From positions 32,001-96,000 of the IMG/VR virus record IMGVR_UViG_3300021400_000020: DNA of 64,000 bases, one strand, 5' to 3'. Position numbers and translations under genes: made by a program. Of this stretch, positions 40,459 through 63,358 are shown one piece after another. The notes under the pieces were generated by a model. It saw only the letters and a list, made by a program, of their open reading frames with translations. It did not search any database and was not told where the DNA came from. The DNA comes from a virus. Position 1 is the first letter of the stretch. The number at the start of each line of letters is the position of its first letter.

Positions 40459-40938
40459 TCAAACCGACAAACGCCGATAAATCGTTTTGCCTTCTTTGTT
40501 TCTGAACGCTTCAAGAACTTCATTCCTCTTTGCCGTTCTACCGTCTTGGTAGCTTACATGTATCCAGTCATAGTCGTATTCGTTGATAATCTGCTTGACA
40601 CCTATCTCTCCGTTCTTCATCATCTTCACAAGCAGGTCAAACAGAGCCTTGTTATCGGCTCTTGAATCGCTCTGGCTTCGAATGTCGGCGGCATTACCGT
40701 AGAGATGGTCACTGGTAGAAGCTCCACCAACAACCTTGTTCAACCTCGGACAACGATACCCACAGGTGACGACAATACTTCTATTATACTTGTTACGTAG
40801 TGGCTGGAGAACTTTCCTGCATAACGTCGCAAGTTTATTCTTGACAACAACACTGGGCGTATTGTCGATACCTAACCTTTGCGCTGTAGCTGATTTTATC
40901 AGCTCCTCAAGCGTGAAATTATCACTCAGTTTCATCAT
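40459..40938 (-). CDS. endolysin, peptidase M15 (VanY/L-alanyl-D-glutamate peptidase-like)
   Basis: FTLEELIKS..., SDHLYGNAADI (HxxxxxxD zinc motif) and DWIHVSY (distal His). Confidence 0.8.
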   Translation of the reverse strand: MMKLSDNFTLEELIKSATAQRLGIDNTPSVVVKNKLATLCRKVLQPLRNKYNRSIVVTCGYRCPRLNKVVGGASTSDHLYGNAADIRSQSDSRADNKALFDLLVKMMKNGEIGVKQIINEYDYDWIHVSYQDGRTAKRNEVLEAFRNKEGKTIYRRLSV

Positions 40939-42144: not shown

Positions 42145-43239
42145 CTATTCCACCGCTTTCGCGTACCTTGGAATCGAAGCGAGGTGCCATAAGCACTGAG
42201 TAAGCGATTCGATACACAGATACACAACGCCCTCGTCAAGATAATACAAGCCTTCCACCAGCTCCATGTTTATACTGAAAGGAATAGGATTTTCCAATGT
42301 GCCTTCATCAGCACCACCCTTCACAACTTGGGTGAACAACGATGTGGCAACTCTTGGATTCCAGTTGTCTTGTGCCGTATGTGTCTGCACCACCTTCCAG
42401 AGCGCATCATCATAGTAGTAACGCTCATCTTTCTTCAGCTCCTTACCAAGCATCGACTCCCAAGATGGAAAGAGTTCAATACACTCCAAAGCGGCATCAT
42501 CATCTCGCTCCACCACCGTTGGCAACACCATCTTCTTTAAAGCAGCGACTACATCCTTGGCGGTTGGCTCCTTCTTCACGTAGGTAAATATCTCGTCACC
42601 GAAGGAAAGCGGTTCAGGATAGCCGTCTTGATAGTCGTATTCATGGACAGCCGCGTAAGTCTCCAAGCCTTCAATCGACAACTGATGACTGTTAGTCATG
42701 TCGTAGCACTCAGCGGCATACACCTCCAAGTCCTTCAGCATCGACCTCGCACTCGCAATCGGCACGTTGAACAAATGACAATTCCCAAAGGAGAGATTGG
42801 TGGTTCTCTTGCCTTTCTCTTCTTCTGCGTCAAGCCTCGAAAGAATACTGGTACGTGTGGTTTTGTCTATCCAGCAGTTCTTGTCCTCATAGCGGAAGAC
42901 ATTGACATCCTCCGACGATCCGTAAGCCGAGTTAAGTGCGAACAACAACTTCTTAGATGCCTCAAACAGCTCATCGTCTTCTACATGCACATTGAAAGTA
43001 TGGACAAGCGCATTACTGACACCTTCAAGCTCCTGAACACTACACAGCCTTCCCGACCCAATGATGGCATCGGCAACCTCCGTGATGGTAGGCACTTCCT
43101 CTGACTTGAACTGCACACTGTCTGCTTCCCATTCTCCATCATCAGACGGGGCGACATTATAGTTCAAAGTAATATAAATCACTTGTGGACCTACACTCGT
43201 CACCATCTGACTTGGCTTCTCTGTAAATTTCTGTTTCAT
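42145..43239 (-). CDS. hypothetical protein downstream of the DGR RT (364 aa from ATG 43239)
   Basis: Track ORF 42145..43272 would overlap the RT stop. ATG 43239 (MKQKFTEKP...) avoids the overlap. Confidence 0.75.
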   Translation of the reverse strand: MKQKFTEKPSQMVTSVGPQVIYITLNYNVAPSDDGEWEADSVQFKSEEVPTITEVADAIIGSGRLCSVQELEGVSNALVHTFNVHVEDDELFEASKKLLFALNSAYGSSEDVNVFRYEDKNCWIDKTTRTSILSRLDAEEEKGKRTTNLSFGNCHLFNVPIASARSMLKDLEVYAAECYDMTNSHQLSIEGLETYAAVHEYDYQDGYPEPLSFGDEIFTYVKKEPTAKDVVAALKKMVLPTVVERDDDAALECIELFPSWESMLGKELKKDERYYYDDALWKVVQTHTAQDNWNPRVATSLFTQVVKGGADEGTLENPIPFSINMELVEGLYYLDEGVVYLCIESLTQCLWHLASIPRYAKAVE

Positions 43240-43249
43240 TTTTTTGATT

Positions 43250-44743
43250 TTATAAATTAAGTTTGAATACATTCTTCATGTGGATACTCTCATAGTGACC
43301 CTGCACATAGAAATACGTCCAAAAGATTTCACCCATCAACGCAATCATCTCCTTCCGATAATGATAGGTTCGCTTCCTCCGACAAAATCCAAGATAGGAA
43401 TTCACGACCTGCTCAATACGCTTGCAGTCCAGATACGTCAAATCCTTCTTTGCCTCCATCAGACGACGGAACCCGATAGCACGCTCCTTGAATCGAGCCA
43501 GCGTCCTGTTCGAAAGATACAGTCTGCAAGGCTTGATATAAGTACCGACAAACAACACGCCATGACTCACTGGCTGCAAGTATCTCTCTTCGTGCATCTC
43601 CAGCTGAAGATGGGTCTTGAGGAACTTTTCCATCTTCACAATCGCACCCTTCAGGAAATCGAGGTCGTCACACTGACAGACGAAATCATCCACGAACCGC
43701 TCGTAGGAGAACGAATGGTGACGGAAAAGGAAAAGCACATACATGTCGAAATACGACATCAAGAAGTTGGCAAACAACTGAGTCGTGAGATTACCGATAG
43801 GCTCACCCTTGGTTTTCTCACAACCAAACAAGGACTTGTTAGGCGATAACCGCTCCCAAAGATGCACGGGCGAATTCAGCACACAATTCTCTTCTGGACG
43901 ATGCAACACAACTGTCTTCGTGGTATGGATAAGCACGTCCCAGAACATCTCTGGCATACGCTGCATACCAAGACGAACAAGGACATCGGGAGAAACCGAC
44001 TCGAAGCCCTTGCGCTCCATGCGCTTCCTCCATCGGTTGATGAACCTCTCCATGAAGTACCACAAAACCAACTTGTCTATACTCATGAAGAAGCCTACAA
44101 TATCACCCTTGAATAGCCATGCCTTACGATGATAATGCCCAGTGATACGCTCCATGCCTTCAGCACAATGTGCAACACATTTGTCTGTACCGAAACCCTT
44201 ACGGCAATTGAAACTGACATTGCCCTGCGACACAAAACGCTCCTCAAACAACGGCTCTAACCGTAAGCAAATCCAATGGTGAACAATCCTGTCACGAAAG
44301 CTGGCGGCAAACACCTCCCTCGGTTTGGGATAGAGAACCATAAAGCAGGTGGATGTGCCTGGTTGATATGTCTTGCTCCACAACTCGTATGCCAAGGCGG
44401 GAATATCCTCTATGGCTTTAGACATGTACTCGATGGCTTGCTTGGAACGGAACTTGCCGTGCATACAGTCTTTGTACGCCGCCCAAACAGAGTCAAGAAA
44501 GGCTTGCGGCACGGAGCTATAATCGTGGAACGCTGTGACCGCCCTGACAACATACGAATTATACTTGTTGTTGTTGTTCACATTACCATTCTGGAAATTC
44601 ACGTTGTACGAATTCGTGGTATTGTTCTCGGACGCGGACCAGAAGTTACTGTCTTTTTGCGATTCTGCATCTTCGTAGCTAACACATCTTGAGAATGTGT
44701 TAGCGAATCGCCCGTTCAACGGATTATAGGATGCTCTAACCAT
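43250..44743 (-). CDS. DGR reverse transcriptase; the true start is uncertain because the 5' ~215 nt of this ORF contains the TR
   Basis: WAAYKDCMHGKFRSKQAIEY (N-terminal DGR-RT-like), FKGDIVGFFMSID (motif A), GEPIGNLTTQLFANFLMSYFD (the IGNLTSQ signature typical of DGR RTs) and YERFVDDFV (YxDD). Confidence 0.9.
   Translation of the reverse strand: MVRASYNPLNGRFANTFSRCVSYEDAESQKDSNFWSASENNTTNSYNVNFQNGNVNNNNKYNSYVVRAVTAFHDYSSVPQAFLDSVWAAYKDCMHGKFRSKQAIEYMSKAIEDIPALAYELWSKTYQPGTSTCFMVLYPKPREVFAASFRDRIVHHWICLRLEPLFEERFVSQGNVSFNCRKGFGTDKCVAHCAEGMERITGHYHRKAWLFKGDIVGFFMSIDKLVLWYFMERFINRWRKRMERKGFESVSPDVLVRLGMQRMPEMFWDVLIHTTKTVVLHRPEENCVLNSPVHLWERLSPNKSLFGCEKTKGEPIGNLTTQLFANFLMSYFDMYVLFLFRHHSFSYERFVDDFVCQCDDLDFLKGAIVKMEKFLKTHLQLEMHEERYLQPVSHGVLFVGTYIKPCRLYLSNRTLARFKERAIGFRRLMEAKKDLTYLDCKRIEQVVNSYLGFCRRKRTYHYRKEMIALMGEIFWTYFYVQGHYESIHMKNVFKLNL
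44528..44652 (-). repeat. DGR template repeat (TR), 125 nt
   Basis: 114 of 125 nt identical to the VR. Asn (AAC)-rich in the coding frame: ENNTTNSYNVNFQNGNVNNNNKYNSYVV. Confidence 0.9.
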
Positions 44744-44749
44744 AATTGC

Positions 44750-45178
44750 TTATGAATTACCCTGACCACTGGTATAATCTCGCAACGCTATTGCTTGCGC
44801 GACGATGCCCCGTGTCAGCTGCCTTATCTTGTTCTCTGTGTCCTTACTGATATGATTCATCTTGTGCAAAATCTTGATGTCGTCCTGAACATCTTCAACG
44901 AAGATATGGACCATATCAAGATACTCTATCCTCATGGCGGAGTCACGAGTCGCATGTGCCAATCCTACACATTTCTTCGCCTCGCTCACAGTCAGCAAGA
45001 TACTGTCTATGTAGCGAGTGAACTTCCTCGGAACTCGTTCATAAAGACATACCACGAAATACTTCAAGTTCGCAATGTCACGATAAATCGGCATCTGACG
45101 AAGTGTCCTGTGCTGACGCTTCTTCTGCTCACTGTCTTGTATCGTTGCTTGTGGAATGACTACACCATTTGTGCTCAT
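44750..45178 (-). CDS. avd: DGR accessory variability determinant (Avd-like four-helix-bundle protein)
   Basis: 142 aa and basic, lying between the VR and TR. ...IYRDIANLKYFVVCLYERVPRKFTRY...SEAKKCVGLA... fits the Avd / four-helix-bundle family pattern. Confidence 0.7.
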   Translation of the reverse strand: MSTNGVVIPQATIQDSEQKKRQHRTLRQMPIYRDIANLKYFVVCLYERVPRKFTRYIDSILLTVSEAKKCVGLAHATRDSAMRIEYLDMVHIFVEDVQDDIKILHKMNHISKDTENKIRQLTRGIVAQAIALRDYTSGQGNS

Positions 45179-45247
45179 ATCATTGTTGTTAAATCATTTG
45201 TGTATCCTTGGGCGACGGCTTGAATGCCGTCGCTATAAGTAAAAAGT

Positions 45248-45263
45248 GACACGCTAAAGCGTG
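45248..45263 (-). promoter_or_regulatory. GC-rich hairpin (6-bp stem, 4-nt loop) 4 nt 3' of the VR, overlapping the target stop codon
   Basis: Coding-strand ACACGC TTTA GCGTGT. Its position matches the hairpin/cruciform that supports homing in characterised DGRs. Confidence 0.55.
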
Positions 45264-48200
45264 TAGGTGAACGCTGTGACCGCCCTGACAACATACGAAT
45301 TATACTTGAGGTTGCTGCCCACACTACCATTCTGGAAACCCACGTTGTACGAATACGCGGTATTGTACTCGGACGCGGACCAGAAGTTACTGTTACCCCA
45401 CCAAGTAAATATTGAAGAGGTCTCTCCTGCATCCTCCAATCTTTTCAGAATGTTCGCCATCAGTGGATAATCAACATCTTGAACTCCTTCTTGGGCTTCA
45501 TTCGCGTATTGCGCACTAATAGTACCACCACTTACCTTATTACGGGAAGCATGGTACATACCGTAAATCTTGTTGACCATACCACAGGCAGGAAGCATCC
45601 AATTTTCTCGCGCATAGCGAGCGTCCAATACTTCACCTTCTTTAACAGCTGGTTCATACAACTTGCATGCGTATGCAGCAGGATAGAACAACTGATAGAA
45701 TCTTGTCGAGTTTGTTGTACCTAACGCGTTTTGCAAATAGCTCAAAGCCACCATCATATCTGCAAGCTCTGTTCTATTATTAGGGCGAGAGTTTGACGAA
45801 GATCGTTCTTTTGCCCACCGCATCAACCCGTATTGCGATGGTGTTAGCAAACTCCATGACGAAGTGTCGAATGTCCCAGTAGTTGATACTGCCTTGCACA
45901 TATACAAAGCACTACTATAGCGAACGACATTTCCACTCGCGTAAGTATTTTCAGTATTATAAGCAGGTGGCGTTTCTGGTAAATCATAATTTCCCCAGAC
46001 ATAACGAATCCAACCTGAAAGGATTTCGTTTGCTCGATCAACCATAGCCGCGGACTTTACTGCAGTAGAGAAGTCACCCGAACCACTACCAGTCGTTGCA
46101 AAAGAATGAAGAGTTACATTTCTACTATGTTCTCGGATTGCAGCTTGAATATCAGAGTTAAAGCCATTAGCATCAGTTGATGGATAAATACCCCACGGTA
46201 ATGAAGCAGTGTTGTTGATAGTACCATCAGAACTTTTTAGGTTGGCATTCTCTTTCGCAACAACATCGATAGTTCGTGTTGAACCAGCACCACCACTACC
46301 AGAAACCCGAACAACAAAGCCAACAACCGTTTTATCGTATCGGTACTCATCATCAAACGTACCGTCCGCAAAGGCGAAGTCGCCTCTTTGTGGCTTGCGG
46401 TTGAAGAAACCAATATTCCAATAAGCACTAATCGTAGTGTCATTCAGCAGCTCAGCAGTCACCTTCAGACGATAGCGGGTCGTGTCTCCAGAAGCAGCCA
46501 AACGAATGACATTGGCAATACCTGCAACATCGTCAACAAACTGCATATAGGAAGAGGCATCAAGGTCTTCCACCTCATTTCCACCGCTATCTGTCTTGAC
46601 AAATCGCCACTGCAACACAGGCTTTCCATCCACAAACTTCAGATTGTTTCCTGCATCGGTAGCAACACCAAACTGAGTCTGACCTAAAGCAGTAAAATAC
46701 TTCTGACCTGTGATAGACAAACGCTCAATCAGCACAGGCACATAATCGATATACAAATCATTCGACTCGCTCCGAATATTGCCATACTTGCCAAACAGAT
46801 ACGTCAAGTCAGACAACGAGAGATTGGCAGCCGTGTGCATCGTAATCCTACCCGTCAAAGTACAAGACTCTAACGACGTAATCCACATCAGGAAGTCACG
46901 ACGTACCGACTCCCAGAGAATATTGGTCAAGGTCAGCACCTCCAACGGAGCATTCTCTTCATGGCATTGCTCTACCAACGCACGTCCCAGACTACCTACA
47001 CCGCGCAAAATCAAAGTTCTCAACTCATACGTGTGTATGACTCTGAGCGTCGTGAGGTTAGGCAAGTTGTTCAGTGTCAGATTAACCAAGCGACTGCCCA
47101 GCTCCACACTCGTCATCAGCAAACTGGATGGTAACTGAATGCCGACGATACCACCCGAAACATTGCCGTTGCCGTCATCAATGCCGTCGCAGCCCATCGT
47201 ATTGACACTACGCAAGCGAATGCAGTTCGACAAGTTCAACGTGCCACCAATCCCTGCACTACCCTCCAAGTCAAGATGCTCTATCAACGGACAGTTAAGC
47301 ACAATCTCAGACGGCTTGAAAGCAGGGTTCGACGGACTCGACGGATTGGAAACGAACTCAGTCAAATGCTGAGCGGTTAGCGTGAATCGGGAAGCGGAAC
47401 TGATATGAAGGTCGCCCACATTACCAAAGGAACGATAGTAATTGGCAGCGTAAAGGGCAATAGCGGTATCGACACCATCAACAGGAGAACCACCCGTCAT
47501 GTCAAAGACAACAGGAACACCTGGCTTGCATCTCTGACGCATGGAGATATTCGTCTGTCCAATACGACCGCATGGATAGATATACTGATGCGGAACCAAA
47601 CCATTGAACACAATAAGATCTCCACCGTTCAAACCAAATACGTTCTCAAGGTCTGAAAAACCGACATTTCCAGACGACAGGCTGAAATCACCCCATTCGG
47701 CATAACTCGCCAGCAATACCAACCTGCGCTTCATGTACTGCACCTCCGCTTCTAATTGGTCACCCATCGACTGCGTGATAGGGTCAACACCTCGCTCGGA
47801 AATGAAATGGACGGAAGCAGGGTATTCATAGCGAATACGGGCAGCCTCGTTATAGGCAACGGCAGGAATGTATTGCTGAATCTTGAAGAAGTATTTCCAC
47901 ATGCAACCCCACGGCGTAGTCTTCTGATTGTTGCTCAATGGCAAATCATCCGACACACTAACAAGCCCGCTCATGGTGGTAAAGATACGCTGGAACATAC
48001 TGCGCAACTCGCCATTGCCCTCATACAACTCTTCTGTCAAATTGAAAAGCACATTGGCATTACCACGATAGAGACTTTCAGTCGAGCCTTCAGCGCAAGG
48101 ATGCAGACGGTCGATATAGTACGGCTTGGTCTGGAAACCGCTATTATCAGTTTTGAAAATAGTATCTTGGTCGTCCTGATGCAACTCCCACTTCCACGTC

Positions 48201-51200
48201 CACGTACTCTTGTCAGCAGAAGCATCACCATACGGAACAAGGCAATAGTAAGTATTCTTCGAACAGTTATCAGAACCGCAAATCATCCAGTTCGTGAAGC
48301 AATAATGGAACTTCAGACTATCTACATTGATGATATTGCCAATCTTACTACGAGCATCTTCAACAACAGCTGCAATAAAACCTGCATTCATCGCCTCGAA
48401 ATTACCAGGATGACTGACATAGGCATTGCGATAGATACTACCAACAGCGGTCAAGTCACATTCCTCCACAACTTCATTGGTTTCATCCCAACCATAATCA
48501 ACCCACTTGCCTTCAAAGAAGTCATAGCGCATCAACTTGTAAGAACCTGCGCCTTCTGTCCACCAATAAAGGTAGTTGACATCATTGGCAGCTGCACTCG
48601 CCTCGAACTGCGTCTTCGTACCAGAAAAATATTTGATACGAGGGTTGTGCTTATAAAGGAAATTGACAAACTGCTTGATGTGGTTCAGAATCGTAGAAGA
48701 AGGTACTTCTACCTCATTACCATCAATCGTGATTGTCTGAGCGACGAACTTGTCAAGGTCAAGACTGGTATAGCCATTATAGATAAAGCCAGCAGCTTCT
48801 CCATCTTCTATCTCGTAACTGATTCTGTCACTCTGCCAAGGCACACGGAAATCGGTCAAAGGAAGGTCGTTATCGGCTCCTTCCAACATCACGAAATTAG
48901 GATGCTTCTTCTTGTTGAATCCCCAAGTACCGTCGTCCATCTTGCCAGGACCGAAAGTACAAGGTCCTTGATAAACAGCGGTGTCACCTTCTTGCAAGAA
49001 ATACAAGAACACATTCTGACACTTCGCCACACGTGCGCCAGCGGTCTGCACCTGCATCACATTCCTTCCGACGATGGCTTGATGCAAATCGTTGTAGAGG
49101 TTACAAGCACCCATCAGGTGACTCTGCATCGAGGATGCATAGTTGATTTTTGCGACGAGCTTTTGAGCGTATGGCACACCGTTCATCAACTTATACTGAG
49201 GACCACGATACATACCATTGCCATCAACCCAGCCGTCAGGGACAAAGGCATAGCCATTCCTTGCAGTAGATGGCGTGAAGTCACTGTAGTCTGGATGAAT
49301 CTTCGTAATTTCCACCCAGATACCATGCGGACAAAGCTCAGCGGTCTGCTCCAGCGTCACAGTCTCTGCGTCAAGCCCGTTCTTCGAAAGTTCCTTATCG
49401 TAAGCCTTCGCCACGTCCTTCAACTTGCTTTGCAGATTCCAATAGTAGTAAGTCTTGGCTGTGGAACCCTGACCTGTCTGCTCAACCGAAGCGGTTTCCC
49501 TACAAAGACTTCCGCTATAGTCTAACAACTCGTTACCATTGTCGTCGTATTGATGGATTTCCCACCAACCCGTTTTGGTAGCAGTGTCACCCTTTCGTAT
49601 CTGACCACCAGCACAGTGCCATATCAGACAGTTCTTCTTCCTCTCCTGACACTTGGTAAGACTAATCAAGCCTGTATTGCCAAGAAGGTCGTTCTCATCT
49701 CGCACACTGACCTTCTGAGCCGCCGTAGGCATCGTACTTCGATAGTTCTGCAAGATGTCGGCTGAATCAAGGGCTTGGTTCTTATACACACGCAAAGCAA
49801 AGATGTCAATATCAGCACCAGCCTGACCTATCACAATGGATGAACCACGACTATACCATGTGCCGGCAGTGTCCTTGTCAAAAATGAACTCACGATTGAT
49901 ACAACCATTGATAAAAACACGACACAAGGCAAGCGTACTGGCATTATTGTCGGTCGATGCTCGCAAAGCGGAAACGATATTGATAACGACATGAGTGCGC
50001 TCACCTTCCTGCCAAGAGAAATTCTGCTCCAGCTCGGTACGGTTCGATGAAGTCCAGACACTACCCTCCAATGGGCGCATCTTCAAACCGATAAAGCCGT
50101 CACCGTATCCTTCGCACGCCTGAAAAACAGGGTCGTCCTCATTAGTGACATTCCGAACCTTGAAATCCAACTCCAACGTGACATTGGCAGCGGCATTGTT
50201 GGCGAAAGGACTCAACCAGTCATAGTTAATAGTCAGTAACTGACCAGCAAGCACACGAAGGACACGCTGATTATCTTCATCCTGAACCCAAGCGTCGTTG
50301 ATAGCTCCGAAATTTGACCATGTGGATGGAACAAGGACATTGCCAACGGCATTCACAATGGAAAGTGGCGTACCCTCGGCATTACTTCGAGTCGAAGGAT
50401 TCAAATAGAAGTCTGCACCATTCGTAGGAGCGAAGTTCTCCTTGTTGTCAACAGTTATCACTTCACCGCTGGCGAAAGTATAAGTCGTTCCTCGGTCAAT
50501 GATATAGGCATAGAAATAGGCATAAAGGGTTAAGTCGGTGCTCTCAATACCCACACTACCATTCAAGTGATAAGGAGTACCAGGAGTTGCCAAGACTTCC
50601 ATATTCAGATAGTCCTGAGTCTGCGAATTGTTGCGGATGGCGAAACTGACAGCGATGGAATCCCTACCAGGCGCATAGACAGCGTAGGAACAAATCTCGG
50701 TCTGCACGTAGTTCTCCGTCGTCTTGATGAGATTCTGGATGAGCAAGCGAGGAGTGTCCGTCACATTACTGGTCACAACCATCAACTGATTGATGACATG
50801 ATCCGTAGAGTTCACGTCTTCTTGCGTACCGTCGGAATAGGTCAGCCATGCCTCAATCGTGATGATACCACCCGACAAGAAACCATAATATTGGGAAGCA
50901 TCAGCAACGGTGTCTGTGTCCTTCCAAGTGGAAAGATAATTGGTATATTCATTCGCACCAATGGAAAAGACATGCTCGTACTCACGGGTTCCGCCTGTAA
51001 TCCTGACATGTAACTTTCTCGCTACACTTCCCTTGAGGTGATAATTGAGAGGAATCACAGTCGGATTCGTCAGAGGCGCATTGTAGTCACCTGCAAATTC
51101 CAAACCCACCTCAGTATAGGTGACGGATGAGAAGGTGACATAACCCTGTGTGTTCATGGTTTGCATGTTGCCAGTCATATCCTCATAGTCAAAAGCAGCA

Positions 51201-51694
51201 CGCAACTGCACGACAACAGTTTCATCTTGCTTCAGATACGGTCCGATATTAACAGGATAATAGGAACTTGGATGCTCGTCATACTCCAACGAAGGAACAT
51301 CTAAAACAGCCTTGTCCTCACCATTGACCCTGACCGTCAAACGTCCATTGGCACCGTAGTTACGAGGAACGACTCCATCCATGTAGGCACCAGTGAACCT
51401 GACTCCAATCCAACAGTCCTTGGAGCTGACAACAATCGGGAGAGTAGGGTCTTGCTCCACCATCAAGTAAGCCTTGTATTCAGCACCTGACAAGTCAATG
51501 GTCAGACGAACCGTTCCTTCCGGATCTGGAGTCTGTGGCGTATTTCCATTCAAGGAAATGCCCATGACACTGTTCTGATTCTGCCTAACAGCACGGACCA
51601 ACCTAACAAACTCTTGAGCTGTTAGCTTACCCTCTGGGTCGTCAGGATGATTGTCGATTTTCGACAACAAGTCTGAAATATCTTCTTTCGCCAT
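45254..51694 (-). CDS. giant DGR target protein (2146 aa): putative tail fiber / receptor-binding protein with LRR-like region and C-terminal C-type-lectin/DUF1566-like variable domain
   Basis: Contains the VR at its 3' end. C-terminus ...WMLPACGMV...FWSASEYNTAYSYNVGFQNGSVGSNLKYNSYVVRAVTAF fits the DUF1566/CLec DGR target pattern. LRR-like LNLSNC..LTLNNLPNLTTLRV..LTLTNI. Confidence 0.9.
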   Translation of the reverse strand: MAKEDISDLLSKIDNHPDDPEGKLTAQEFVRLVRAVRQNQNSVMGISLNGNTPQTPDPEGTVRLTIDLSGAEYKAYLMVEQDPTLPIVVSSKDCWIGVRFTGAYMDGVVPRNYGANGRLTVRVNGEDKAVLDVPSLEYDEHPSSYYPVNIGPYLKQDETVVVQLRAAFDYEDMTGNMQTMNTQGYVTFSSVTYTEVGLEFAGDYNAPLTNPTVIPLNYHLKGSVARKLHVRITGGTREYEHVFSIGANEYTNYLSTWKDTDTVADASQYYGFLSGGIITIEAWLTYSDGTQEDVNSTDHVINQLMVVTSNVTDTPRLLIQNLIKTTENYVQTEICSYAVYAPGRDSIAVSFAIRNNSQTQDYLNMEVLATPGTPYHLNGSVGIESTDLTLYAYFYAYIIDRGTTYTFASGEVITVDNKENFAPTNGADFYLNPSTRSNAEGTPLSIVNAVGNVLVPSTWSNFGAINDAWVQDEDNQRVLRVLAGQLLTINYDWLSPFANNAAANVTLELDFKVRNVTNEDDPVFQACEGYGDGFIGLKMRPLEGSVWTSSNRTELEQNFSWQEGERTHVVINIVSALRASTDNNASTLALCRVFINGCINREFIFDKDTAGTWYSRGSSIVIGQAGADIDIFALRVYKNQALDSADILQNYRSTMPTAAQKVSVRDENDLLGNTGLISLTKCQERKKNCLIWHCAGGQIRKGDTATKTGWWEIHQYDDNGNELLDYSGSLCRETASVEQTGQGSTAKTYYYWNLQSKLKDVAKAYDKELSKNGLDAETVTLEQTAELCPHGIWVEITKIHPDYSDFTPSTARNGYAFVPDGWVDGNGMYRGPQYKLMNGVPYAQKLVAKINYASSMQSHLMGACNLYNDLHQAIVGRNVMQVQTAGARVAKCQNVFLYFLQEGDTAVYQGPCTFGPGKMDDGTWGFNKKKHPNFVMLEGADNDLPLTDFRVPWQSDRISYEIEDGEAAGFIYNGYTSLDLDKFVAQTITIDGNEVEVPSSTILNHIKQFVNFLYKHNPRIKYFSGTKTQFEASAAANDVNYLYWWTEGAGSYKLMRYDFFEGKWVDYGWDETNEVVEECDLTAVGSIYRNAYVSHPGNFEAMNAGFIAAVVEDARSKIGNIINVDSLKFHYCFTNWMICGSDNCSKNTYYCLVPYGDASADKSTWTWKWELHQDDQDTIFKTDNSGFQTKPYYIDRLHPCAEGSTESLYRGNANVLFNLTEELYEGNGELRSMFQRIFTTMSGLVSVSDDLPLSNNQKTTPWGCMWKYFFKIQQYIPAVAYNEAARIRYEYPASVHFISERGVDPITQSMGDQLEAEVQYMKRRLVLLASYAEWGDFSLSSGNVGFSDLENVFGLNGGDLIVFNGLVPHQYIYPCGRIGQTNISMRQRCKPGVPVVFDMTGGSPVDGVDTAIALYAANYYRSFGNVGDLHISSASRFTLTAQHLTEFVSNPSSPSNPAFKPSEIVLNCPLIEHLDLEGSAGIGGTLNLSNCIRLRSVNTMGCDGIDDGNGNVSGGIVGIQLPSSLLMTSVELGSRLVNLTLNNLPNLTTLRVIHTYELRTLILRGVGSLGRALVEQCHEENAPLEVLTLTNILWESVRRDFLMWITSLESCTLTGRITMHTAANLSLSDLTYLFGKYGNIRSESNDLYIDYVPVLIERLSITGQKYFTALGQTQFGVATDAGNNLKFVDGKPVLQWRFVKTDSGGNEVEDLDASSYMQFVDDVAGIANVIRLAASGDTTRYRLKVTAELLNDTTISAYWNIGFFNRKPQRGDFAFADGTFDDEYRYDKTVVGFVVRVSGSGGAGSTRTIDVVAKENANLKSSDGTINNTASLPWGIYPSTDANGFNSDIQAAIREHSRNVTLHSFATTGSGSGDFSTAVKSAAMVDRANEILSGWIRYVWGNYDLPETPPAYNTENTYASGNVVRYSSALYMCKAVSTTGTFDTSSWSLLTPSQYGLMRWAKERSSSNSRPNNRTELADMMVALSYLQNALGTTNSTRFYQLFYPAAYACKLYEPAVKEGEVLDARYARENWMLPACGMVNKIYGMYHASRNKVSGGTISAQYANEAQEGVQDVDYPLMANILKRLEDAGETSSIFTWWGNSNFWSASEYNTAYSYNVGFQNGSVGSNLKYNSYVVRAVTAFTYTL
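45268..45392 (-). repeat. DGR variable repeat (VR), 125 nt
   Basis: Eleven differences from the TR, all where the TR coding strand has A. Eight codons are changed (N>Y, T>A, N>Y, N>G, N>S, N>G, N>S, N>L). Confidence 0.9.
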
Positions 51695-53126: not shown

Positions 53127-56100
53127 TTATTGCGTGATGTTAGCCACCAAATTCAATCCTACACTTTGCGAACCGACGGCAAAAGCCGATAGGTTCTGGT
53201 CGGCGTCGCCATTTATTGTCAGGTCTATTCCTTTATAAGCGGTAACTGCATAAGCCTTGTCAGCGTCAACCATGCAAGCGTAATAGCCAAGTTCATCGGT
53301 ATCGCACTGAAATTCATCTTCTCCATTGTCAAAGGTAATCCGTGCTCCAGCAACTGCACTGTTCGACCTGTCAATCAGTCTTCCATAGACATAGATAACA
53401 GTATCACTACGAGAAGCAGAACGCTCAATCTCCCAATAGATACACTCCTTGCCGTTGAACTCTCCAAGACAGCATTGAAGAATGGCTATCTGGGACGTGC
53501 CAACAGAAGTGTAATCAATGCGACTGTATTGTGGAGAGACTGCGATAGGGTCTGTGTCTTCAACCTCATGGCTTGTATTACCAAACGAAACACCTCGACT
53601 CCTAACCTCGACCAAGAATCGGCTCTTTATATTCAACGCATACAGTAAATTGTTAGAGATATATGGGAAAAGATAGAACTTCTTTCCTATACACTGCCGT
53701 AAATCCTCACTCGTCATACCAGGAAACTCAACCAAATCCCTATCATTAAGGGCACTACACTCAATATGAACTACCCCATCAGAATCAGAATACAAGGAAG
53801 GAAGATATAACGTGTGAGAGGTGGAAGCTGTGAATTCAATGATACTGCCCCAGCGCAAAGGATTCAAAAACCAAACCTCACCTTCTGAAAGAACCTTCCT
53901 TTGTATCAAGTTGTTCAGTACGCCTGCAATCGTGCAGTTATTCATCTCGGCATTGCCTTCCTCATCTACCTTGAAATTGCCGTTGATAGTCGTATAGCCC
54001 TCAAGACGGATATTGTCAGCCTTAATCAACACACCTCCCTTGATAAAGTTGTTGCCGTATTCATCCTCGACGCGCTGACCTTTTGAATCCAGCTCATACT
54101 GAATATATGTGCTAATTTGAGAAGCAATCGTAAACTGACCATTCTTAATATAACCAGTAAACGTCGAAGCAAAGCCTTCCGTAGTCACAAAACCGCTCGT
54201 CAATGATTCTACATCAGATTCTGTTACATAATGATTCGAATTCAAATGATCACGAATAGAACTTAACAAAGAATCGGAATTGACATAGTGGTTCGAAACA
54301 TACTGGAGAATGTAGTTTTGAGTGAGAGATAGTAGAGAATTTCGCGTCATTGGAGTACCAGCAATACTATAAAGATGCAATGTGCCACCACTCACACGCA
54401 ACGTGATACCCTGCGCATAATCAAAATTCAACTCGATACTATCTTCAGCAAAACCGTCAGTTCCTATATACTCGAAGGACTGCGTAATATCTTTCCAGGA
54501 CTGAGCAGAATCGGTGGATTCCTTGGATTTGACTCGAACCTTTGCGTTTTCTGAGACAGATTCAAAAACACCTTTGAACCTAAAAGTAATGGCTTCACCA
54601 TCATATTCTTTAGCTGTTGGAAGTAAACCAAACTTCAACTCGATATATTCTGGATATACGGTCTCCTTAATACACAGGCAAGGCAAACCGCCAAAGATTT
54701 CTTCGTAGATATAACCTTCGGTCTCTTCTCCGTCGGCAGACCCATTGCCATTGTAATAATCAAAACTTCTATAGAGATTCGAGAATATCTTGTTGCCTGA
54801 CAGGGAAGAAACACGCATCTGAATAGCGTCAGCCGTTTGCCTGATTTCAGACGTGCTACTCTCCACGACTTCAAGAAGAGTGCCGACCGACGTTATCTTT
54901 TCGAGATAGAAAACCGTACCATCACAACGAATAGTGAAACTCCTACTATAGTCAAGCATGACAGGCACCACAACCTCGGTCAAGCCCTCCGTATCAGGGA
55001 ATACAAACAAAGGGTCATCCTGCAACTCGGAATAGAGCTGGGCAACACCCGAAGACTTGTGATAGGTAACACGAAGATGAATCTGCTCACCGTCAAGCTG
55101 ACTCGCACTCGGCAAGAGAGTGAAGCGGACATTGATACCAACCTGGTCGTCGTCAATCATCAAGACAGACTTGCCTTGGAAAGTGGTCTCTTGAATCAAC
55201 CAAGTGTCATGCTCAGGATAATCCGCTTCAAACGTATAACCTCCAACGAAAGGAGCAACAGGCGTAAGGAATATTTCCTTGGCAAGCTCCTTCTCAATCG
55301 TACTGCTGACCGTCGAGACGATACTATTGCTGAGCAACTCAATCGCCGCCGTATTGCTGGCAACATCGTTGCCAAGTTGTTGCAGACTCTCCACCTGAAG
55401 GGCAATCTCGTGGGCTGTCTGTGAGATGGAAGACTGGTATTCGCTGATAATATTGGTAGTATCATCGGACAAGGAACAGTCACGCAAGAAGACACCAGCA
55501 TACTCTATGCGGATGAAAAGTTGCGTAAAGCCCTGATGCGAACTGCTATTCTCGTAGGACCAACTGCTCTTGAAGCGAAGGGTGTTATACTTCGTGCTGT
55601 CTGCCACAAGAGACTGGACATAGAGAGTTCTCGTCGTACCATCATGGAACTTCTCACCAACAATAATCTTCGGAAGGACGGTTGCAGAGTTGAAGTTAGT
55701 AATGACAGTGCTACACTTATACGTCAATCTGAAGACAATAGGACGACTCGCGTGCTCAATCGGTTCAATCACATCAGGAACGACAGCCCTCGATATGCCA
55801 TCATCGCCACTTAATGCCTGAATATCGATAACGGTTCTACCACCATCTGTGGCAGCGGTAACATGACTACTCGATGTGTCCTCCTTGGAATCATCGTACT
55901 TGTGGCAATGGTAAAGCCCCTCAGAGAACAACGGGTCAAGTATATAATCGTTGGCATCCGTCGCGTTGATGTCTCGCGTACTGCTGACAGTGCTCGTAAT
56001 GCCGTCTGCTGTTTGCTCTACGGCTGACAACCTACCATTGAATCCGTTGACAGTCGAAGAAATACTATTGACAGTCTGCTTGATTTCTGAACGTGCAGAC

Positions 56101-59100
56101 TGAGCAAACGCAATGGCATTCGCACTGACACAGAAGTCGGTCAGATAAACCTGTGCAGCACTACCACTTGTCGCACCCTGGACACCAATATAAAGGTTCT
56201 CCCTTCCACATAGGAAAGTGGTACGCAAATAGACATAGGTCGTTGATTGGGAAAGTTCAAAACGCGCTATCTCAGTCGTGGTTTCAGCCGTATTGCCAAC
56301 GGCATCACCATTGCCTTTATGAAGAACAAGCAACGCACTGGCAGAAAGACATCTGACACCAATACGAATATAAGTCGGAAAATTGGTAATATCCGCACCG
56401 ACACTACTGTAGTCCATCTTCGGCTTGATACCACGCAACGAACCATTATCAGCATGGATATTGATGATATACTTGTTACCCGACGCTATCGATTGCACAT
56501 GGTTGCCTGAATCCTCTGTGTCGGACAACCACTTGGAATAGCCGTAGTCGCCACCCTCACCATACTCAAACAAAGGGTCAACAACATAGTCGTTGGCTTC
56601 CTTGGCAGATATGTTTCGGGTTTCTTCAACCGTACTGGTAATGGAATCGCTCAACTGCTGAATGGAGGAGGACTGATTTTGTAAACTACTATCAACATGA
56701 GATTTCCACCCAGAGTAAGTTTGCAAGAAAGAGGAAAAAGCTATCAAATTTCCATTAGCATCAAAAGCACTCACAATCCCTTGAATAGACTGAGCGGTTT
56801 GCTCCAACTGGGAAGAGAAACGGTTAATCAGAGCTTCATTCAAGTTCAGACTAACAACAAAACCAAAAATCCTAACGGCACGTCCGTTGGTGTAAATAGA
56901 GAAGTCACCCTGTCCGTCCCAGTTGAAAGAGGTGGCAACCTTGTTGTATTTGCCATCTGCCTTGATGCTCAGAGAGGTATCAACAGAACCCAGCACCAAC
57001 CGAACGGATGTGTCCGTGCTATTGCCAACAGGCTCCGCCATCGCATAGAACGAGACAGCAACCGTCTGAGGAATAATCTGCTGGTTCTCATCTCGCTCAA
57101 AAGTCGGCAAATTACGCATGTCAGCATTGAACTGAACAATACCGCGACTGTGCTCGTAGTCACCACAAATCTCAACGTACTTTCGACCGTTAGACTCACC
57201 CATACGGGTGTAATAAGCCGTACCACCATCACTAAGAATATTAGTGCTATCACCAATGAGATAGGCATTTCCATCGCTCTCATCGATACGGAAGAACTGA
57301 CCGCCAGCATAAATATTCCACTTGTCCCAACCATCAGCGAAAGCATTGTTGGAAATGAAGCCTTCGTCGGCTATCAAGTCCTCACGCAAGGCACTCACAG
57401 AGCTGCGGACAACACCATCCAACACCTGAAACAAAGTGCCTAAGTCCTGATACTCGTTATTGATTTTAACGATGAACTTACCCTTCAACCAGGCATTGTC
57501 GGAATAAAGTCCATAACCGTTAGGCTGCTCCAAACCGTTCCAAAAAGCATCATCGATACCATCCAAGCAACCCAAGCGACAACGAAGATTGCCACCACCT
57601 GCTTTGGAATTGCAGCCGTCCATAACGTCGATGCGAGGAACACCGTCCTCGGTAGCACTGATATAGATATAGTTCTGACGCTTCACATATTGAGTGTTAC
57701 CCATCAGCACACACTCATCATTCACCTGCGGTACAGAACCAGCATCCAGCATGGAGGTCTCGCCTGTCACGGGGTCAGTGTATTCAATCGGAGCACCAAA
57801 CTCGCTACAAGGCACAAGAATGTCATAGGCGGAAGAAAACTCAACCAAGACTTGTTGTTCCTGCTCATCTAACACGGGCTGCCACTCGTCGTCAAGGAGA
57901 TATAAAGGGCTTGGGGTTTCAGCATTGTCACTATTGGTGAAAGCGGAAGTGTCGGGATATGCCACTTCCACCCAATAGTATTGCATGGCATCCACATCTG
58001 GAAGGTCAGCGTCATCATCGTCCGTACCCATATTATACCTGCCATTATTCCAACGCTGGCAACGCATTAGGTCGTGACGCACAAAGTTATTGGTATCTTC
58101 AAATGTAATTTTGTAGTATTCTACATTGTTCGCAAGTACACGCTGCACTGCCTTGACCTTTCCTTGAGCTGCACTGACAATCAATATACCACCCACGGAA
58201 CGAATCTTCTGAATAACCAGCTCAAAGATATACATGATTCTGCGCACGGTAAGCGTGTCGAGTTCCATGTTCCAGCCAGTGTGTTCATCAAACCAAATCT
58301 TCGCACCATGACCGTTGAAACCACTCTGGAAAGATGCACCTACCTTCGTTTCTGGATCTGCACTGACCAATTCAGAAAAGACACCGTTCACAATCGTAGT
58401 GAGCTTGCGAACAAACAAATTGTCCAACTCCCCGCCCCATTCGTCATTGTTGCCCTTGACAAATCGACCTCCCACACCTTGAACACCACCTTCAAAACCA
58501 AGTTGAGAGCCAAGGAAAAGGGAACCAAGAATTTCAGCTACCGCACTTGCGTTAATGCCTAACTTCTCGGTAATCCTGACATTGGCATGGGTTTCAACAC
58601 CCGTATGACTCTCGTCGCCTGAATGGGATTCAACACCTCTATGCGTCTCTGCAGACTCATGAAACTCCTGACCCTTGAAAGTGGCAGTTCCCGTCTTGAA
58701 GACGACATTGCCGGAATGGGACTCGTCGTTCTGAAAATATACCTGACCTTCATGTACTTCCGTCCCACCATGCTCCTCCGCATCATGGAACGTAGCCAGC
58801 CCACTCACGTCAATGCCTGACTGAAAACTAATCTTTCCTGCCGCCGTGTCATTATGGACCTTACTCAAATACAAGTCATCAAGCTCTTCCAGCTTCTTCT
58901 TGATATACAATTTGATGTAGCCAGCCGTCGCTAACTGACTGTCATTCATGCCTGCATCATCCTCCAAGCCGCGAGCCATCGTCAACAAGGTAGATAACTC
59001 AACACCATCAAAAACGAACTTCTTGCCATTGCCAATCGTCAAGCCACCTAAAGCCATCAGCATACCACCAACAGACAAGGAACCGACAATCTCAAGCATC

Positions 59101-59630
59101 TTGACAGGATAATTGAAGACAAGGTTGCCTTCGACATCCAAGGAGAAATACTCGTTGCTCGCCTCTCGCTCTCCCCTATCCGTACCTAACAATCCAGAAT
59201 CATAGGAAATGACACGCTCACCCTCCGAAGGAGCAGACACCTGACCAATACGGACGTACCAGAAATCGGCATCCTCGACAGCCGATTCATCCGCCAACTC
59301 CCCTTGCTCGTTCAGGATACGACCATAGACATCGTACAGGTTGGGAGAATAAATCACCAAAGCCGTTCTGCCTACCTTCGTCAGACGGGCATAGATATAC
59401 AGCATCTTATTGGCATGGGCTGACGAGAAGGCAGTGGGATAGGCATAGAGAAGCCAACGGTCGTAACTGCCGTCTGCAGAGAAGCCAATGGGCGTTCCTG
59501 TATAAACAAGAATTTTTGTACCTTGCTGCAAGGAAACACTCACCTTCTCGGAGTCTCCCAGGGCATTCTCTGAGAAACTCAAAGCAAAAGGCGCAATGTA
59601 GTAAGTGTTGTTATTCTGAGTGCGAATCAT
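53127..59630 (-). CDS. giant tail/host-specificity-like protein (2167 aa) with repeated modules and a CarboxypepD_reg-like C-terminus
   Basis: Four or more repeats of an (S/E)xIxQTAxxI...STV motif followed by beta-rich units (for example ANDYVVDPLF and ANDYILDPLF, 642 nt apart). C-terminus YGRLIDRSNSAVAGARITFDNG...TDELGYY. Confidence 0.85.
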   Translation of the reverse strand: MIRTQNNNTYYIAPFALSFSENALGDSEKVSVSLQQGTKILVYTGTPIGFSADGSYDRWLLYAYPTAFSSAHANKMLYIYARLTKVGRTALVIYSPNLYDVYGRILNEQGELADESAVEDADFWYVRIGQVSAPSEGERVISYDSGLLGTDRGEREASNEYFSLDVEGNLVFNYPVKMLEIVGSLSVGGMLMALGGLTIGNGKKFVFDGVELSTLLTMARGLEDDAGMNDSQLATAGYIKLYIKKKLEELDDLYLSKVHNDTAAGKISFQSGIDVSGLATFHDAEEHGGTEVHEGQVYFQNDESHSGNVVFKTGTATFKGQEFHESAETHRGVESHSGDESHTGVETHANVRITEKLGINASAVAEILGSLFLGSQLGFEGGVQGVGGRFVKGNNDEWGGELDNLFVRKLTTIVNGVFSELVSADPETKVGASFQSGFNGHGAKIWFDEHTGWNMELDTLTVRRIMYIFELVIQKIRSVGGILIVSAAQGKVKAVQRVLANNVEYYKITFEDTNNFVRHDLMRCQRWNNGRYNMGTDDDDADLPDVDAMQYYWVEVAYPDTSAFTNSDNAETPSPLYLLDDEWQPVLDEQEQQVLVEFSSAYDILVPCSEFGAPIEYTDPVTGETSMLDAGSVPQVNDECVLMGNTQYVKRQNYIYISATEDGVPRIDVMDGCNSKAGGGNLRCRLGCLDGIDDAFWNGLEQPNGYGLYSDNAWLKGKFIVKINNEYQDLGTLFQVLDGVVRSSVSALREDLIADEGFISNNAFADGWDKWNIYAGGQFFRIDESDGNAYLIGDSTNILSDGGTAYYTRMGESNGRKYVEICGDYEHSRGIVQFNADMRNLPTFERDENQQIIPQTVAVSFYAMAEPVGNSTDTSVRLVLGSVDTSLSIKADGKYNKVATSFNWDGQGDFSIYTNGRAVRIFGFVVSLNLNEALINRFSSQLEQTAQSIQGIVSAFDANGNLIAFSSFLQTYSGWKSHVDSSLQNQSSSIQQLSDSITSTVEETRNISAKEANDYVVDPLFEYGEGGDYGYSKWLSDTEDSGNHVQSIASGNKYIINIHADNGSLRGIKPKMDYSSVGADITNFPTYIRIGVRCLSASALLVLHKGNGDAVGNTAETTTEIARFELSQSTTYVYLRTTFLCGRENLYIGVQGATSGSAAQVYLTDFCVSANAIAFAQSARSEIKQTVNSISSTVNGFNGRLSAVEQTADGITSTVSSTRDINATDANDYILDPLFSEGLYHCHKYDDSKEDTSSSHVTAATDGGRTVIDIQALSGDDGISRAVVPDVIEPIEHASRPIVFRLTYKCSTVITNFNSATVLPKIIVGEKFHDGTTRTLYVQSLVADSTKYNTLRFKSSWSYENSSSHQGFTQLFIRIEYAGVFLRDCSLSDDTTNIISEYQSSISQTAHEIALQVESLQQLGNDVASNTAAIELLSNSIVSTVSSTIEKELAKEIFLTPVAPFVGGYTFEADYPEHDTWLIQETTFQGKSVLMIDDDQVGINVRFTLLPSASQLDGEQIHLRVTYHKSSGVAQLYSELQDDPLFVFPDTEGLTEVVVPVMLDYSRSFTIRCDGTVFYLEKITSVGTLLEVVESSTSEIRQTADAIQMRVSSLSGNKIFSNLYRSFDYYNGNGSADGEETEGYIYEEIFGGLPCLCIKETVYPEYIELKFGLLPTAKEYDGEAITFRFKGVFESVSENAKVRVKSKESTDSAQSWKDITQSFEYIGTDGFAEDSIELNFDYAQGITLRVSGGTLHLYSIAGTPMTRNSLLSLTQNYILQYVSNHYVNSDSLLSSIRDHLNSNHYVTESDVESLTSGFVTTEGFASTFTGYIKNGQFTIASQISTYIQYELDSKGQRVEDEYGNNFIKGGVLIKADNIRLEGYTTINGNFKVDEEGNAEMNNCTIAGVLNNLIQRKVLSEGEVWFLNPLRWGSIIEFTASTSHTLYLPSLYSDSDGVVHIECSALNDRDLVEFPGMTSEDLRQCIGKKFYLFPYISNNLLYALNIKSRFLVEVRSRGVSFGNTSHEVEDTDPIAVSPQYSRIDYTSVGTSQIAILQCCLGEFNGKECIYWEIERSASRSDTVIYVYGRLIDRSNSAVAGARITFDNGEDEFQCDTDELGYYACMVDADKAYAVTAYKGIDLTINGDADQNLSAFAVGSQSVGLNLVANITQ

Positions 59631-61789: not shown

Positions 61790-63358
61790 TTACACAGTCT
61801 TCAGAGAGTGCATACGTGCAGCACGAGCCTGGCGCTTCTCTTCTGCCGTCATGCCCTCCTTATAGATGGAATGGGCAGAGAGGTCGGTATGCGAAACAGC
61901 TGGACCACCATCACCTGCGGATGGAACAGGAACCTGGGGAGCACGCTTGGACACATCGTCCAACTCCTGCTGCTTGGCTGCAAGGTCTTGCTGCAACCGC
62001 TGAACCTGAGCTTTAGACGCATCAAGCTGAGAACGAAGAGCGTCAAGTTCTGTGTCCTTGGCGGAAAGCGCGTCCTGATGGGAAGCTGACAACTCCTGCA
62101 CCTTGGCATCCATCTCCTGCTGATGAGTGGATTTCAAAAGGTCCATCTCCTGCTGATGAGCGGAAACAGCGGAAGCAAGGTCGGTAGCCGACTTGTCACG
62201 CTCTTCCTGAACAAGCAGATTCAACTTGGTAATCTCATCCTGCTTGGCAGCAAGCGTCAACTTGGTGGTCTCGGCTTCAGCCAAAGACTTGTCGATACAC
62301 TCCGCGTAAGACTCGTTAAGATAGACTCCGTTCGTGGAATCGCTCTCCAACGCTTCCAAACCGAGTGCCTTCTGAATGTTTTCGTAATTCTTCATATTTA
62401 TTGAGGATTGTGAGGAGGACACCCTCCTCTGGTTACTATTGCTTCGAGAAAAGGATGCGGATGAGGAAACTGACATCAACTCATCAACACACCCTCGAAT
62501 GGTATTCTGACCATCCACTAAACTTCCGACAACATCTTTAACAACATAGACATCACCACTAAGCTGCTCTTCCTGAACGGAAGGACGACATGAACGTACC
62601 AACGACATGAACTCGTCGTCGCACTTGTCCAAATCCTTCTGAAGTGTCTCAAAATTGCCGTCTTTAACATCACGAATCAGCTTGTTCTTCAGACTGCTCT
62701 TGGAAGCGTATAACTCTACAAATTCCTCCTGAGTGATACTGTTCACATCACCATGACGCTGAATATAAAAAGCTGCAAAGACACCGATACTGCCTACCTT
62801 GTCGTTCGGATTCACAAAATAAATCTTGTCACACTGCGATGCTAAAGCATAACCAGCAGAACAACAGGAACCATCTATCAAAGCATAAACCTTCTGACCC
62901 TTAGAATGAGCATAATCGATCGCTATGCGAAAATCATACAAGGAATCAAAACTGCCACCCAACGTATTGATGATAAACAAATGACCACGACACTGACGGA
63001 AGTCGGCAATCTTCATCAACTGGTCACGCAAGTCCATGCTTCCGTAGGAACAGCCATCACCACCACGAGTGATAGGACCAGAGACCCGCAGAACATCTAT
63101 GACAGCATCCTCTTCCTCGAAATCTTTTTCGCTCCAATAACGACTACTGGTCAGATAAAGCTTCGACTGAAAATCATGGTGATGAGAAGAAAGCAAATAA
63201 CCAGGCTTCTTCTGACTCTTATAAACAGCTAAATCCACACGAGACGATACACCAAACTCGACGTCTTTGCGATAACCTCGCAAGGCATCTTGTTCCATCG
63301 CCCAAAACTTAGTTGTCAGTATTTCGTGTAAAAGCATGTCCGTGATAATTTTTCGCAA
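61790..63358 (-). CDS. prohead protease (S49/ClpP-like) fused to a coiled-coil scaffold domain; start at TTG 63358 or ATG 63337
   Basis: ...LIDGSCCSAGYALASQCDKIYFVNPNDKVGSIGVFAAF (SppA/S49-like Ser motif). C-terminal 200 aa are heptad-rich (QQEMDLLKSTHQQEMDAKVQEL...QRLQQDLAAKQQEL). Confidence 0.8.
   Translation of the reverse strand: MRKIITDMLLHEILTTKFWAMEQDALRGYRKDVEFGVSSRVDLAVYKSQKKPGYLLSSHHHDFQSKLYLTSSRYWSEKDFEEEDAVIDVLRVSGPITRGGDGCSYGSMDLRDQLMKIADFRQCRGHLFIINTLGGSFDSLYDFRIAIDYAHSKGQKVYALIDGSCCSAGYALASQCDKIYFVNPNDKVGSIGVFAAFYIQRHGDVNSITQEEFVELYASKSSLKNKLIRDVKDGNFETLQKDLDKCDDEFMSLVRSCRPSVQEEQLSGDVYVVKDVVGSLVDGQNTIRGCVDELMSVSSSASFSRSNSNQRRVSSSQSSINMKNYENIQKALGLEALESDSTNGVYLNESYAECIDKSLAEAETTKLTLAAKQDEITKLNLLVQEERDKSATDLASAVSAHQQEMDLLKSTHQQEMDAKVQELSASHQDALSAKDTELDALRSQLDASKAQVQRLQQDLAAKQQELDDVSKRAPQVPVPSAGDGGPAVSHTDLSAHSIYKEGMTAEEKRQARAARMHSLKTV

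Follow-up and report, generated by a model that had tools for sequence, protein, structure and literature searches.

The element described here is a diversity-generating retroelement (DGR) in a 64,000-nt stretch of viral DNA (positions 32,001 to 96,000 of IMG/VR record IMGVR_UViG_3300021400_000020), which was analyzed at its full length and is called the window in the following. The prototype of such elements is the DGR of Bordetella phage BPP-1 with the order mtd-avd-TR-brt, in which mtd is the target gene, TR the template repeat and brt the gene of the reverse transcriptase (RT) bRT. BPP-1 requires a hairpin after its variable repeat (VR), the effect of which depends on structure and is independent of sequence (PMC3240598), and it depends on a 140-nt structured spacer 3′ of the TR (bioRxiv 10.1101/2023.10.23.563531). 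The DGR of Bacteroides phage BS-TP1 (PQ571274; 111.7 kb, host Bacteroides salyersiae) and the targets of about 2000 aa of similar temperate phages of Bacteroidaceae were described in 2025 (PMC12694917). Further known systems are the DGR of Legionella pneumophila (LdtA) and those of the Bacteroides uniformis Bacuni phages. Thousands of viral DGRs that target tail proteins are known (PMC8144416), and DUF1566-type VRs are a recognized class of DGR targets, category 'd' (DUF1566/DUF823/Fib_succ_major), which includes CLec2 VRs (PMC5758913). Also, the overlap of a TR with the annotated open reading frame (ORF) of the RT is known as an architecture class, group 3 (PMC3521204).

All cassette genes of the window lie on the minus strand, and target, avd, TR and RT follow each other in the order known from BPP-1. 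With this prototype the locus also shares a VR placed at the far 3′ end of a gene of the tail-fibre type, adenine-specific mutagenesis of a TR built on AAY codons, a homologous RT, an accessory protein with predicted Avd fold, and a hairpin with a 4-nt loop a few nt past the VR (PMC3240598). It differs from BPP-1 in its target, which has 2146 aa and a DUF1566/CLec2-type domain instead of one of the Mtd type, in an RT with TQ instead of SQ in motif 4 and an insertion of about 60 aa, and in the surroundings of the TR, where no intergenic spacer and no 3′ structure were detected and a covarying two-helix element is present 5′ of the TR instead. The VR domain is of the same class, PF07603, as that of the Legionella and Bacuni DGRs (PMC5758913, PMC8143477), and the RTs of Bacuni_F1, F2 and F4 are among the best phage matches. 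In contrast to the 2146-aa fibre, the targets of these systems are short lipoproteins or fimbrial-tip-like proteins, and the Bacuni phages possess two targets and have their TR in an ORF that is annotated separately (PMC8143477).

Judged by sequence comparison, the cassette is closest to the DGRs of BS-TP1-type Bacteroidaceae phages and canonical in kind. BS-TP1 carries a syntenic cassette of gp27 (2187 aa), gp26 (four-helix bundle) and gp25 (RT); gp27 and the target of the window are homologous along about 2000 aa, and no deposited phage has a closer RT. It has an adenine-specific TR/VR pair of its own, the TR being located within the annotated RT ORF, and the covariance model of the 5′ RNA element matches just before this TR (L001 11745-11824). 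Both differ in their Avd proteins (19% identity) and TR sequences, there is no similarity at the DNA level, and BS-TP1 comes from a human-gut or sewage Bacteroides source as opposed to a sheep-rumen metagenome. The TR/VR pair of BS-TP1 consists of two blocks (L001 10984-11118 and 11819-11950) with spacings of 835 and 832, so that within the repeat TR and VR differ by 3 nt in length.

We consider it very likely that the element of the window is a functional DGR of a large rumen phage, by which the tip of a 2146-aa tail-fibre-like protein is diversified. Its anatomy, the homology of all its parts, the adenine-only divergence of the repeats and the occurrence of natural VR alleles beside an invariant TR are direct observations. 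A preliminary description of this DNA, made from the letters without database searches, had named it a complete DGR of canonical architecture, and every component named there was found.

Repeat pair and natural VR alleles

The TR (44528-44652, minus strand) and the VR (45269-45393, minus strand) each comprise 125 nt and are spaced by 741 nt from start to start. In this register, 11 of the 125 positions differ (TR positions 44568, 44569, 44574, 44577, 44578, 44583, 44598, 44599, 44614, 44617 and 44626). Each of them is an A on the coding strand of the TR (plus-strand T) and a G, T or C on that of the VR, each occupies the first or second codon position in the frame of the target, and there is no mismatch at any non-adenine position of the TR. 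The preliminary description had listed exactly these sites with plus-strand T in the TR and A, G or C in the VR, and had placed the first copy correctly; its second copy (45268-45392, offset 740) was one base short, and, taken literally, these coordinates shift the repeats out of register, giving 97 mismatches. About 40 coding-strand adenines had been estimated for the TR and 40 were counted, of which 39 occupy first or second codon positions. The described richness in AAC was also seen, as the TR contains 13 AAY codons (7 AAC and 6 AAT). With 40 adenines in 125 nt, the hypergeometric probability of all 11 mismatches falling on adenines is 1.2e-6; the preliminary description had given roughly 4e-6 for random placement. 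The homology of TR and VR breaks off sharply at both repeat ends, and no third copy exists within the 64-kb window, even if every TR adenine is free to vary (as N). As had been claimed for the variable copy, the VR forms the last codons of a long ORF, ending 12 nt (4 codons) upstream of the stop codon of the 2146-aa target.

For comparison between strains, we used contigs from other samples which encode an identical Avd protein, and an IMG contig which carries a near-identical cassette. VR alleles were compared in register; local pairwise alignment pairs VR with TR wrongly. Including the window, four VR nucleotide alleles were obtained from different metagenomes, each with 10-12 differences from the TR. 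Taken together, these are 45 substitutions at 24 positions, and all 45 are located at TR adenines and at codon position 1 or 2. The chance that all 24 distinct positions are adenines is about 2e-15. A fifth allele is known as protein sequence alone (P0177). The TR is identical in five independent contigs, although avd and RT differ there by 1–4%, and if the 97 nt preceding the TR are included, 0 differences in 222 nt are found among these strains. Adenine-only VR alleles beside an invariant TR are the signature of mutagenic retrohoming, and thereby the main prediction of the preliminary description, active diversification, holds at the level of the lineage.

These data also bear on the question whether the cassette could be a relic, i.e., whether the VR was diversified formerly and the element is now inactive in this genome. 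The VR of the window is identical to that of a matching ENA scaffold, as would be seen with an inactive element, but both sequences stem from the same assembly. All ORFs are intact, the catalytic FVDD motif of the RT is present, and the unchanged 222 nt of TR and upstream sequence next to genes diverging by 1–4% argue for continuing constraint. Moreover, strains with an identical Avd protein carry different VR alleles, so that VR turnover must be recent. We regard a relic as very improbable and a functional DGR as the appropriate reading of the allele data.

The last 25 nt of the VR (45269-45293, minus strand) form a GC-rich segment, CAGGGCGGTCACAGCG, which is identical to the TR and, by analogy to BPP-1, probably acts as a homing end resembling the initiation of mutagenic homing (IMH) sequence. 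The adenines in this segment are unchanged in all four alleles, the most 3′ substitution being located at TR position 100 of 125. No sequence difference of the IMH/IMH* type was found within the repeat, TR and VR diverging only past the repeat end. Located 4 nt 3′ of the VR is a candidate hairpin or cruciform (45249-45264, minus strand; ACACGC-TTTA-GCGTGT); its stem has 6 bp and its loop 4 nt, and the stop codon TAG of the target gene lies within it. Stems of at least 6 bp within 50 nt are present after the VR in 42 of 49 unique relatives, after the TR in 2/49 and in shuffled sequence in 1/49, and the stem sequences downstream of the VR change among relatives with retention of pairing, in parallel to the requirement of BPP-1 for structure rather than sequence (PMC3240598). 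In the 80 related IMG/VR loci introduced below and the window, the loops of these hairpins are mostly T-rich and 4 nt long (TTTA, TTTT, TCCA and TTTG on the sense strand), whereas BPP-1-like phage DGRs show a GRNA loop consensus (PMC3240598), which was not seen in the window or its relatives. A second GC-rich hairpin (45212-45233, minus strand; GCGACGGC-ATTCAA-GCCGTCGC) is located between the target gene and avd and may act as a terminator or correspond to the hairpins found 20-35 nt after the VR in relatives.

The standard model of retrohoming is the best supported one, and by analogy with BPP-1 its biochemical steps could be as follows. The avd-TR-RT region would be transcribed, and the RT together with the Avd-type helical-bundle protein would copy the 125-nt TR with misincorporation opposite adenines. 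The complementary DNA (cDNA) would then take the place of the homologous VR in the 3′-terminal part of the target gene, with the identical, GC-rich 3′ end of the repeats as the limit of the replacement and with assistance by the hairpin 4 nt downstream of the VR. Thereby, a maximum of 21 codons (13 AAY codons among them) could be recoded in the DUF1566/Lcl_C-type (C-type-lectin-like) C-terminal domain, which allows for about 1e20 protein variants with almost no stop-codon risk, as only one TR codon (AAG) is able to become a stop codon. The likely purpose would be altered binding of host surface ligands.

Reverse transcriptase, accessory protein and target

The RT ORF (43250-44743, minus strand) has 497 codons at its longest and contains the RNA element and the TR in frame in its 5′ part; the homology to other RTs starts at about 44509, approximately 20 nt past the TR. 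RTs of DGRs have the motif 4 consensus [ILV]GxxxSQ and a catalytic YxDD-type box. The IGNLTTQ and FVDD motifs of the preliminary description were both located, the former as part of motif 4, PIGNLTTQLFAN (43766-43801, minus strand), and the latter as an intact catalytic motif at 43685-43696 (minus strand). In motif 4, Ile, Gly and Gln are retained, with Thr in place of Ser. The stretch PIGNLTTQLFAN aligns with PIGSLTSQLFAN of bRT, PIGxLTxQLFAN being conserved. Among 135 RT relatives, the residue in question is Ser in 126, Thr in 6 and Ala in 3, and the Thr variant is common to the 6 closest representative relatives of the 135. Compared to bRT, the RT has about 60 extra residues, which are located between bRT residues 160 and 177 (window about 43840-44060; RT residues about 236-312).

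The RT matches phrog_1423 (E 6.7e-56, residues 84-476), and its sole sequence match in the PDB is bRT (8ub7, E 8.5e-24). In total, 5816 RT homologues were found. The best phage RT matches by tblastn were those of BS-TP1 (43.7%) and of Bacuni_F1, F2 and F4 (33–36% identity), i.e., phages for which DGRs were found in this analysis or in the cited papers; further matches came from Burkholderia, Pseudomonas and Bordetella phages. From IMG/VR, 80 loci with RT identities of 37–95% were retrieved by profile search, many of them on contigs of about 100 kb, and 77 of the 80 show the order VR-avd-TR-RT and mismatches overwhelmingly at TR adenines. Therefore, the element is one member of a large phage DGR family that has already been sampled (see also PMC8144416).

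A different origin of the same arrangement would be an ordinary duplication or gene conversion giving rise to the repeats, with an unrelated RT of a retron, a group II intron or a defence system located nearby. The NCBIfam search of the RT did produce matches to group II, Drt2 and retron families, yet these are weak and far below the cut-offs, with no group II, Drt/DRT or retron match above threshold, and the Pfam RVT_1 match is below threshold as well. This origin is at odds with bRT being the only solved relative, with the adenine-biased TR/VR pairs found in the same arrangement at 77/80 loci of RT relatives, and with adenine-only mismatches in four independent alleles, the chance of which is near 1e-15. 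Also, a search of Rfam 15 over 43200-45500, which covered the RNA element 5′ of the TR, matched no family, group II intron RNA included. The RT groups with DGR RTs and not with those of group II introns, retrons or Abi/DRT systems, as supported by these sequence comparisons and in agreement with the DGR type of RT proposed before. An origin by duplication next to an unrelated RT is effectively refuted, and we proceed with the RT as part of a DGR.

The Avd-type protein (44750-45178, minus strand; 142 aa) is encoded between the target gene and the TR. As its sequence had no match in Pfam, PHROG, NCBIfam or the PDB, and a profile of its relatives gave a marginal match to 2gsc (E 0.4), a fold search was needed for its identification. 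The AlphaFold model, calculated with 21 homologues, reached a predicted local distance difference test (pLDDT) value of 86.5 and shows a short N-terminal helix followed by four long helices. The Avd protein of BPP-1 is a pentameric helical bundle. Foldseek matched the model to 2gsc, 2rld, 4dwl and chains B-E of 8ub7. Against Bordetella Avd (4dwl), the target-normalised template modelling (TM) score was 0.86 with a root-mean-square deviation of 1.9, and the target-normalised TM scores for 4dwl and the Avd chains of 8ub7 ranged from 0.78 to 0.86. According to this model, the 142-aa protein is of the Avd-type fold. The Avd-like gene claimed before is supported by the superposition of a confident model on 4dwl, the hidden Markov model searches of the sequence themselves having been empty.

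The target gene (45254-51694 including the stop codon, minus strand) encodes a tail-fibre-like multidomain protein of 2146 aa with the VR in its last approximately 45 codons. It matches phrog_24896 (E 7e-66), and its identity with gp27 of BS-TP1 is 27% over about 2000 aa (E 8e-168). Of 45 homologous C-terminal domains, 36 match PF07603 (Lcl_C/DUF1566), the best of them with E 7e-12, and the profile of this domain family matches PDB entry 8q4e (E 2.8e-6). The C-terminal domain of Lcl is C-type-lectin-like (PMC11162425), and on the basis of this literature a C-type-lectin fold may be expected for the VR domain.

Between strains, the target gene is a mosaic (window 45769-46315 and 46463-51576 compared with L002, L008, L006 and L007). 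In L002 and L008, there is no DNA-level match to the target segment of about 550 nt directly upstream of the VR domain. In L006 and L007, the encoded Avd protein is identical, yet the target gene aligns at the DNA level at its ends only, and the L006 target has 2118 aa compared to 2146 aa in the window. Besides the DGR, module exchange thus seems to shape the fibre.

What the target binds is a separate question. The DGR could be real and the diversified protein another virion or surface adhesin, directed to mucus, glycans or a non-host ligand, instead of a binder of the host receptor. The target is not covered by any family with a known function, another giant ORF of tail-fibre-like type (53127-59630, 2167 aa) adjoins it, and DUF1566 domains elsewhere bind glycosaminoglycans (PMC11162425), all of which would fit such an adhesin. 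Against it speak the target gene's location among tail and lysis genes, the preference of viral DGR clades for tail proteins (PMC8144416) and the predicted tail-related nature of the homologous 2000-aa targets of Bacteroidaceae phages (PMC12694917). We assign this alternative a minor, still appreciable probability. For the "receptor-binding tip" of the preliminary description, this means that the VR is indeed located at the C-terminal tip of a tail-fibre-like protein and that receptor binding is a likely role in view of homology and position.

Several points weigh against a functional DGR acting on a receptor-binding tip. Motif 4 of the RT has TQ instead of the usual SQ, which we regard as a conservative variant, and the Avd protein is without a sequence-level family match. 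The C-terminal domain of the window itself stays below the Pfam threshold for PF07603 (E 0.0022). Searching by word index for homologues of the target C-terminus yielded only 3 proteins, and AlphaFold prediction of the last 218 aa with a 3-sequence alignment reached a pLDDT of 36.8. The receptor-binding role is based only on PHROG and BS-TP1 homology and on neighboring tail genes. The VR alleles come from different samples, and ongoing diversification within one population would be concluded from the level of the lineage. Finally, RNAalifold with 18 relatives detected no conserved pairs in the 130 nt following the TR, so that the priming mechanism of BPP-1 is not simply transferable.

RNA element and open reading frame at the TR

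A structured RNA element (44659-44711, minus strand) is located 6 nt 5′ of the TR. Its helix P1 (44711-44705 with 44665-44659; 7 bp) encloses the hairpin P2 (44704-44694 with 44688-44678, loop 44693-44689; about 11 bp) and a conserved 12-nt linker, UACGAAGAUGCA (44677-44666), all on the minus strand. This P1/P2 structure is obtained by RNAalifold from a plain MAFFT alignment, with 91.5% of the cells paired and compensatory changes in 17 of 18 pairs. The covariation score is 0.72, compared to 0.23 for shuffled alignments (0 of 500 reach 0.72) and 0.09–0.19 for slid controls. With a covariance model, a single copy was detected in each of 73 sources out of 82, BS-TP1 among them; all of these copies adjoin the TR, and the rest of the 712 kb gave no match. 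The conserved 'LNGR' and 'SYEDA' stretches in the N-terminal extensions of the RTs were considered as protein conservation and rejected, as the DNA shows them to be the single-stranded flanks of the RNA structure. Possible duplexes of the linker with the TR 3′ end or with downstream RNA are short, GU-rich and placed inconsistently.

In 76 of 77 relatives, the RT frame stays uninterrupted from an ATG directly after the avd stop codon, through the RNA element and the TR (the latter read in the frame of the VR) and into the RT. Of 63 unique loci, 62 lack stop codons in this frame over the 84 nt preceding the TR, compared to 6/63 and 13/63 for the other two frames. The junction between TR and RT has at least 9 different lengths, all of which are in frame, and in about half of the loci no ATG, GTG or TTG is present between the TR and the first RT helix. 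Start candidates for the RT of the window are ATG 44743, GTG 44512 and ATG 44464 (minus strand), and GTG 44512 could be its start. The codon-position statistics of the leader (131/125/175) give a weak coding signal. Together, the frame data suggest that translation of the TR provides the RT with an N-terminal extension, or at least that the open frame is under selection; a description of selection for an open frame across the TR was not found in the literature.

In analogy to the stop duplex of BPP-1, the 5′ element might serve in a comparable role as a scaffold for RT/Avd binding or for cDNA termination. Going further, and with more doubt than confidence, we propose that in this clade the 5′ two-helix element replaces the 3′ spacer of BPP-1, that the RT mRNA is also the template RNA, and that the RT carries an N-terminal extension encoded by the TR. 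If true, this would represent a different solution for the assembly of the DGR ribonucleoprotein, perhaps with coupling in cis, and for the cDNA stop at the 5′ end of the TR.

Phage context and significance

The window is 100% identical to a part of the 97,040-bp ENA scaffold SHIW14-1_SAMN02144230 scaffold_390, the source of which is taken to be a sheep-rumen metagenome. The DNA belongs to a rumen phage of about 97 kb, which probably infects Bacteroidota. Besides SAMN02144230, the phage is carried by samples ERZ28594114, ERZ27318003, ERZ27256871 and IMG 3300031867 and 3300031994. A megablast search of the cassette against 50,697 phage records and an exact 21-mer scan of GTDB genomes gave no match; in view of the empty GTDB scan, neither a prophage nor a host was assigned. 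From the metagenome scan, the match L004 was rejected on reading as a GC-rich chance similarity, and the other match was the same IMG contig.

The genes around the cassette resemble those of phages. Further ORFs of the window include one of 2425 aa with a weak tape-measure match (5680-12957), a DNA methyltransferase (23441-25303), an endolysin of the Peptidase_M15_3 type (40459-40938) and a head protease or major-head-like protein (61790-63358). An ORF of 375 aa (42145-43272, minus strand), which overlaps the 3′ end of the RT gene by 23 nt and matches phrog_27545 and phrog_30034 (function unknown), may be a conserved neighbor of the cassette. At the corresponding position, BS-TP1 encodes a DUF4376 protein.

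As a DGR, the element adds little, since its kind is well known and the type with targets of 2000 aa was described in 2025 (PMC12694917). Its value is that of a clean natural example, in which near-identical rumen phage strains share one invariant TR and carry adenine-only VR alleles. Two features found throughout the clade, the 5′ RNA element and the open RT frame, may inform on the DGR mechanism beyond the Bordetella model. If the 5′ element is an RT/Avd-binding or termination scaffold, this would aid the design of compact DGR-based diversification tools and improve the annotation of DGRs in gut and rumen viromes.

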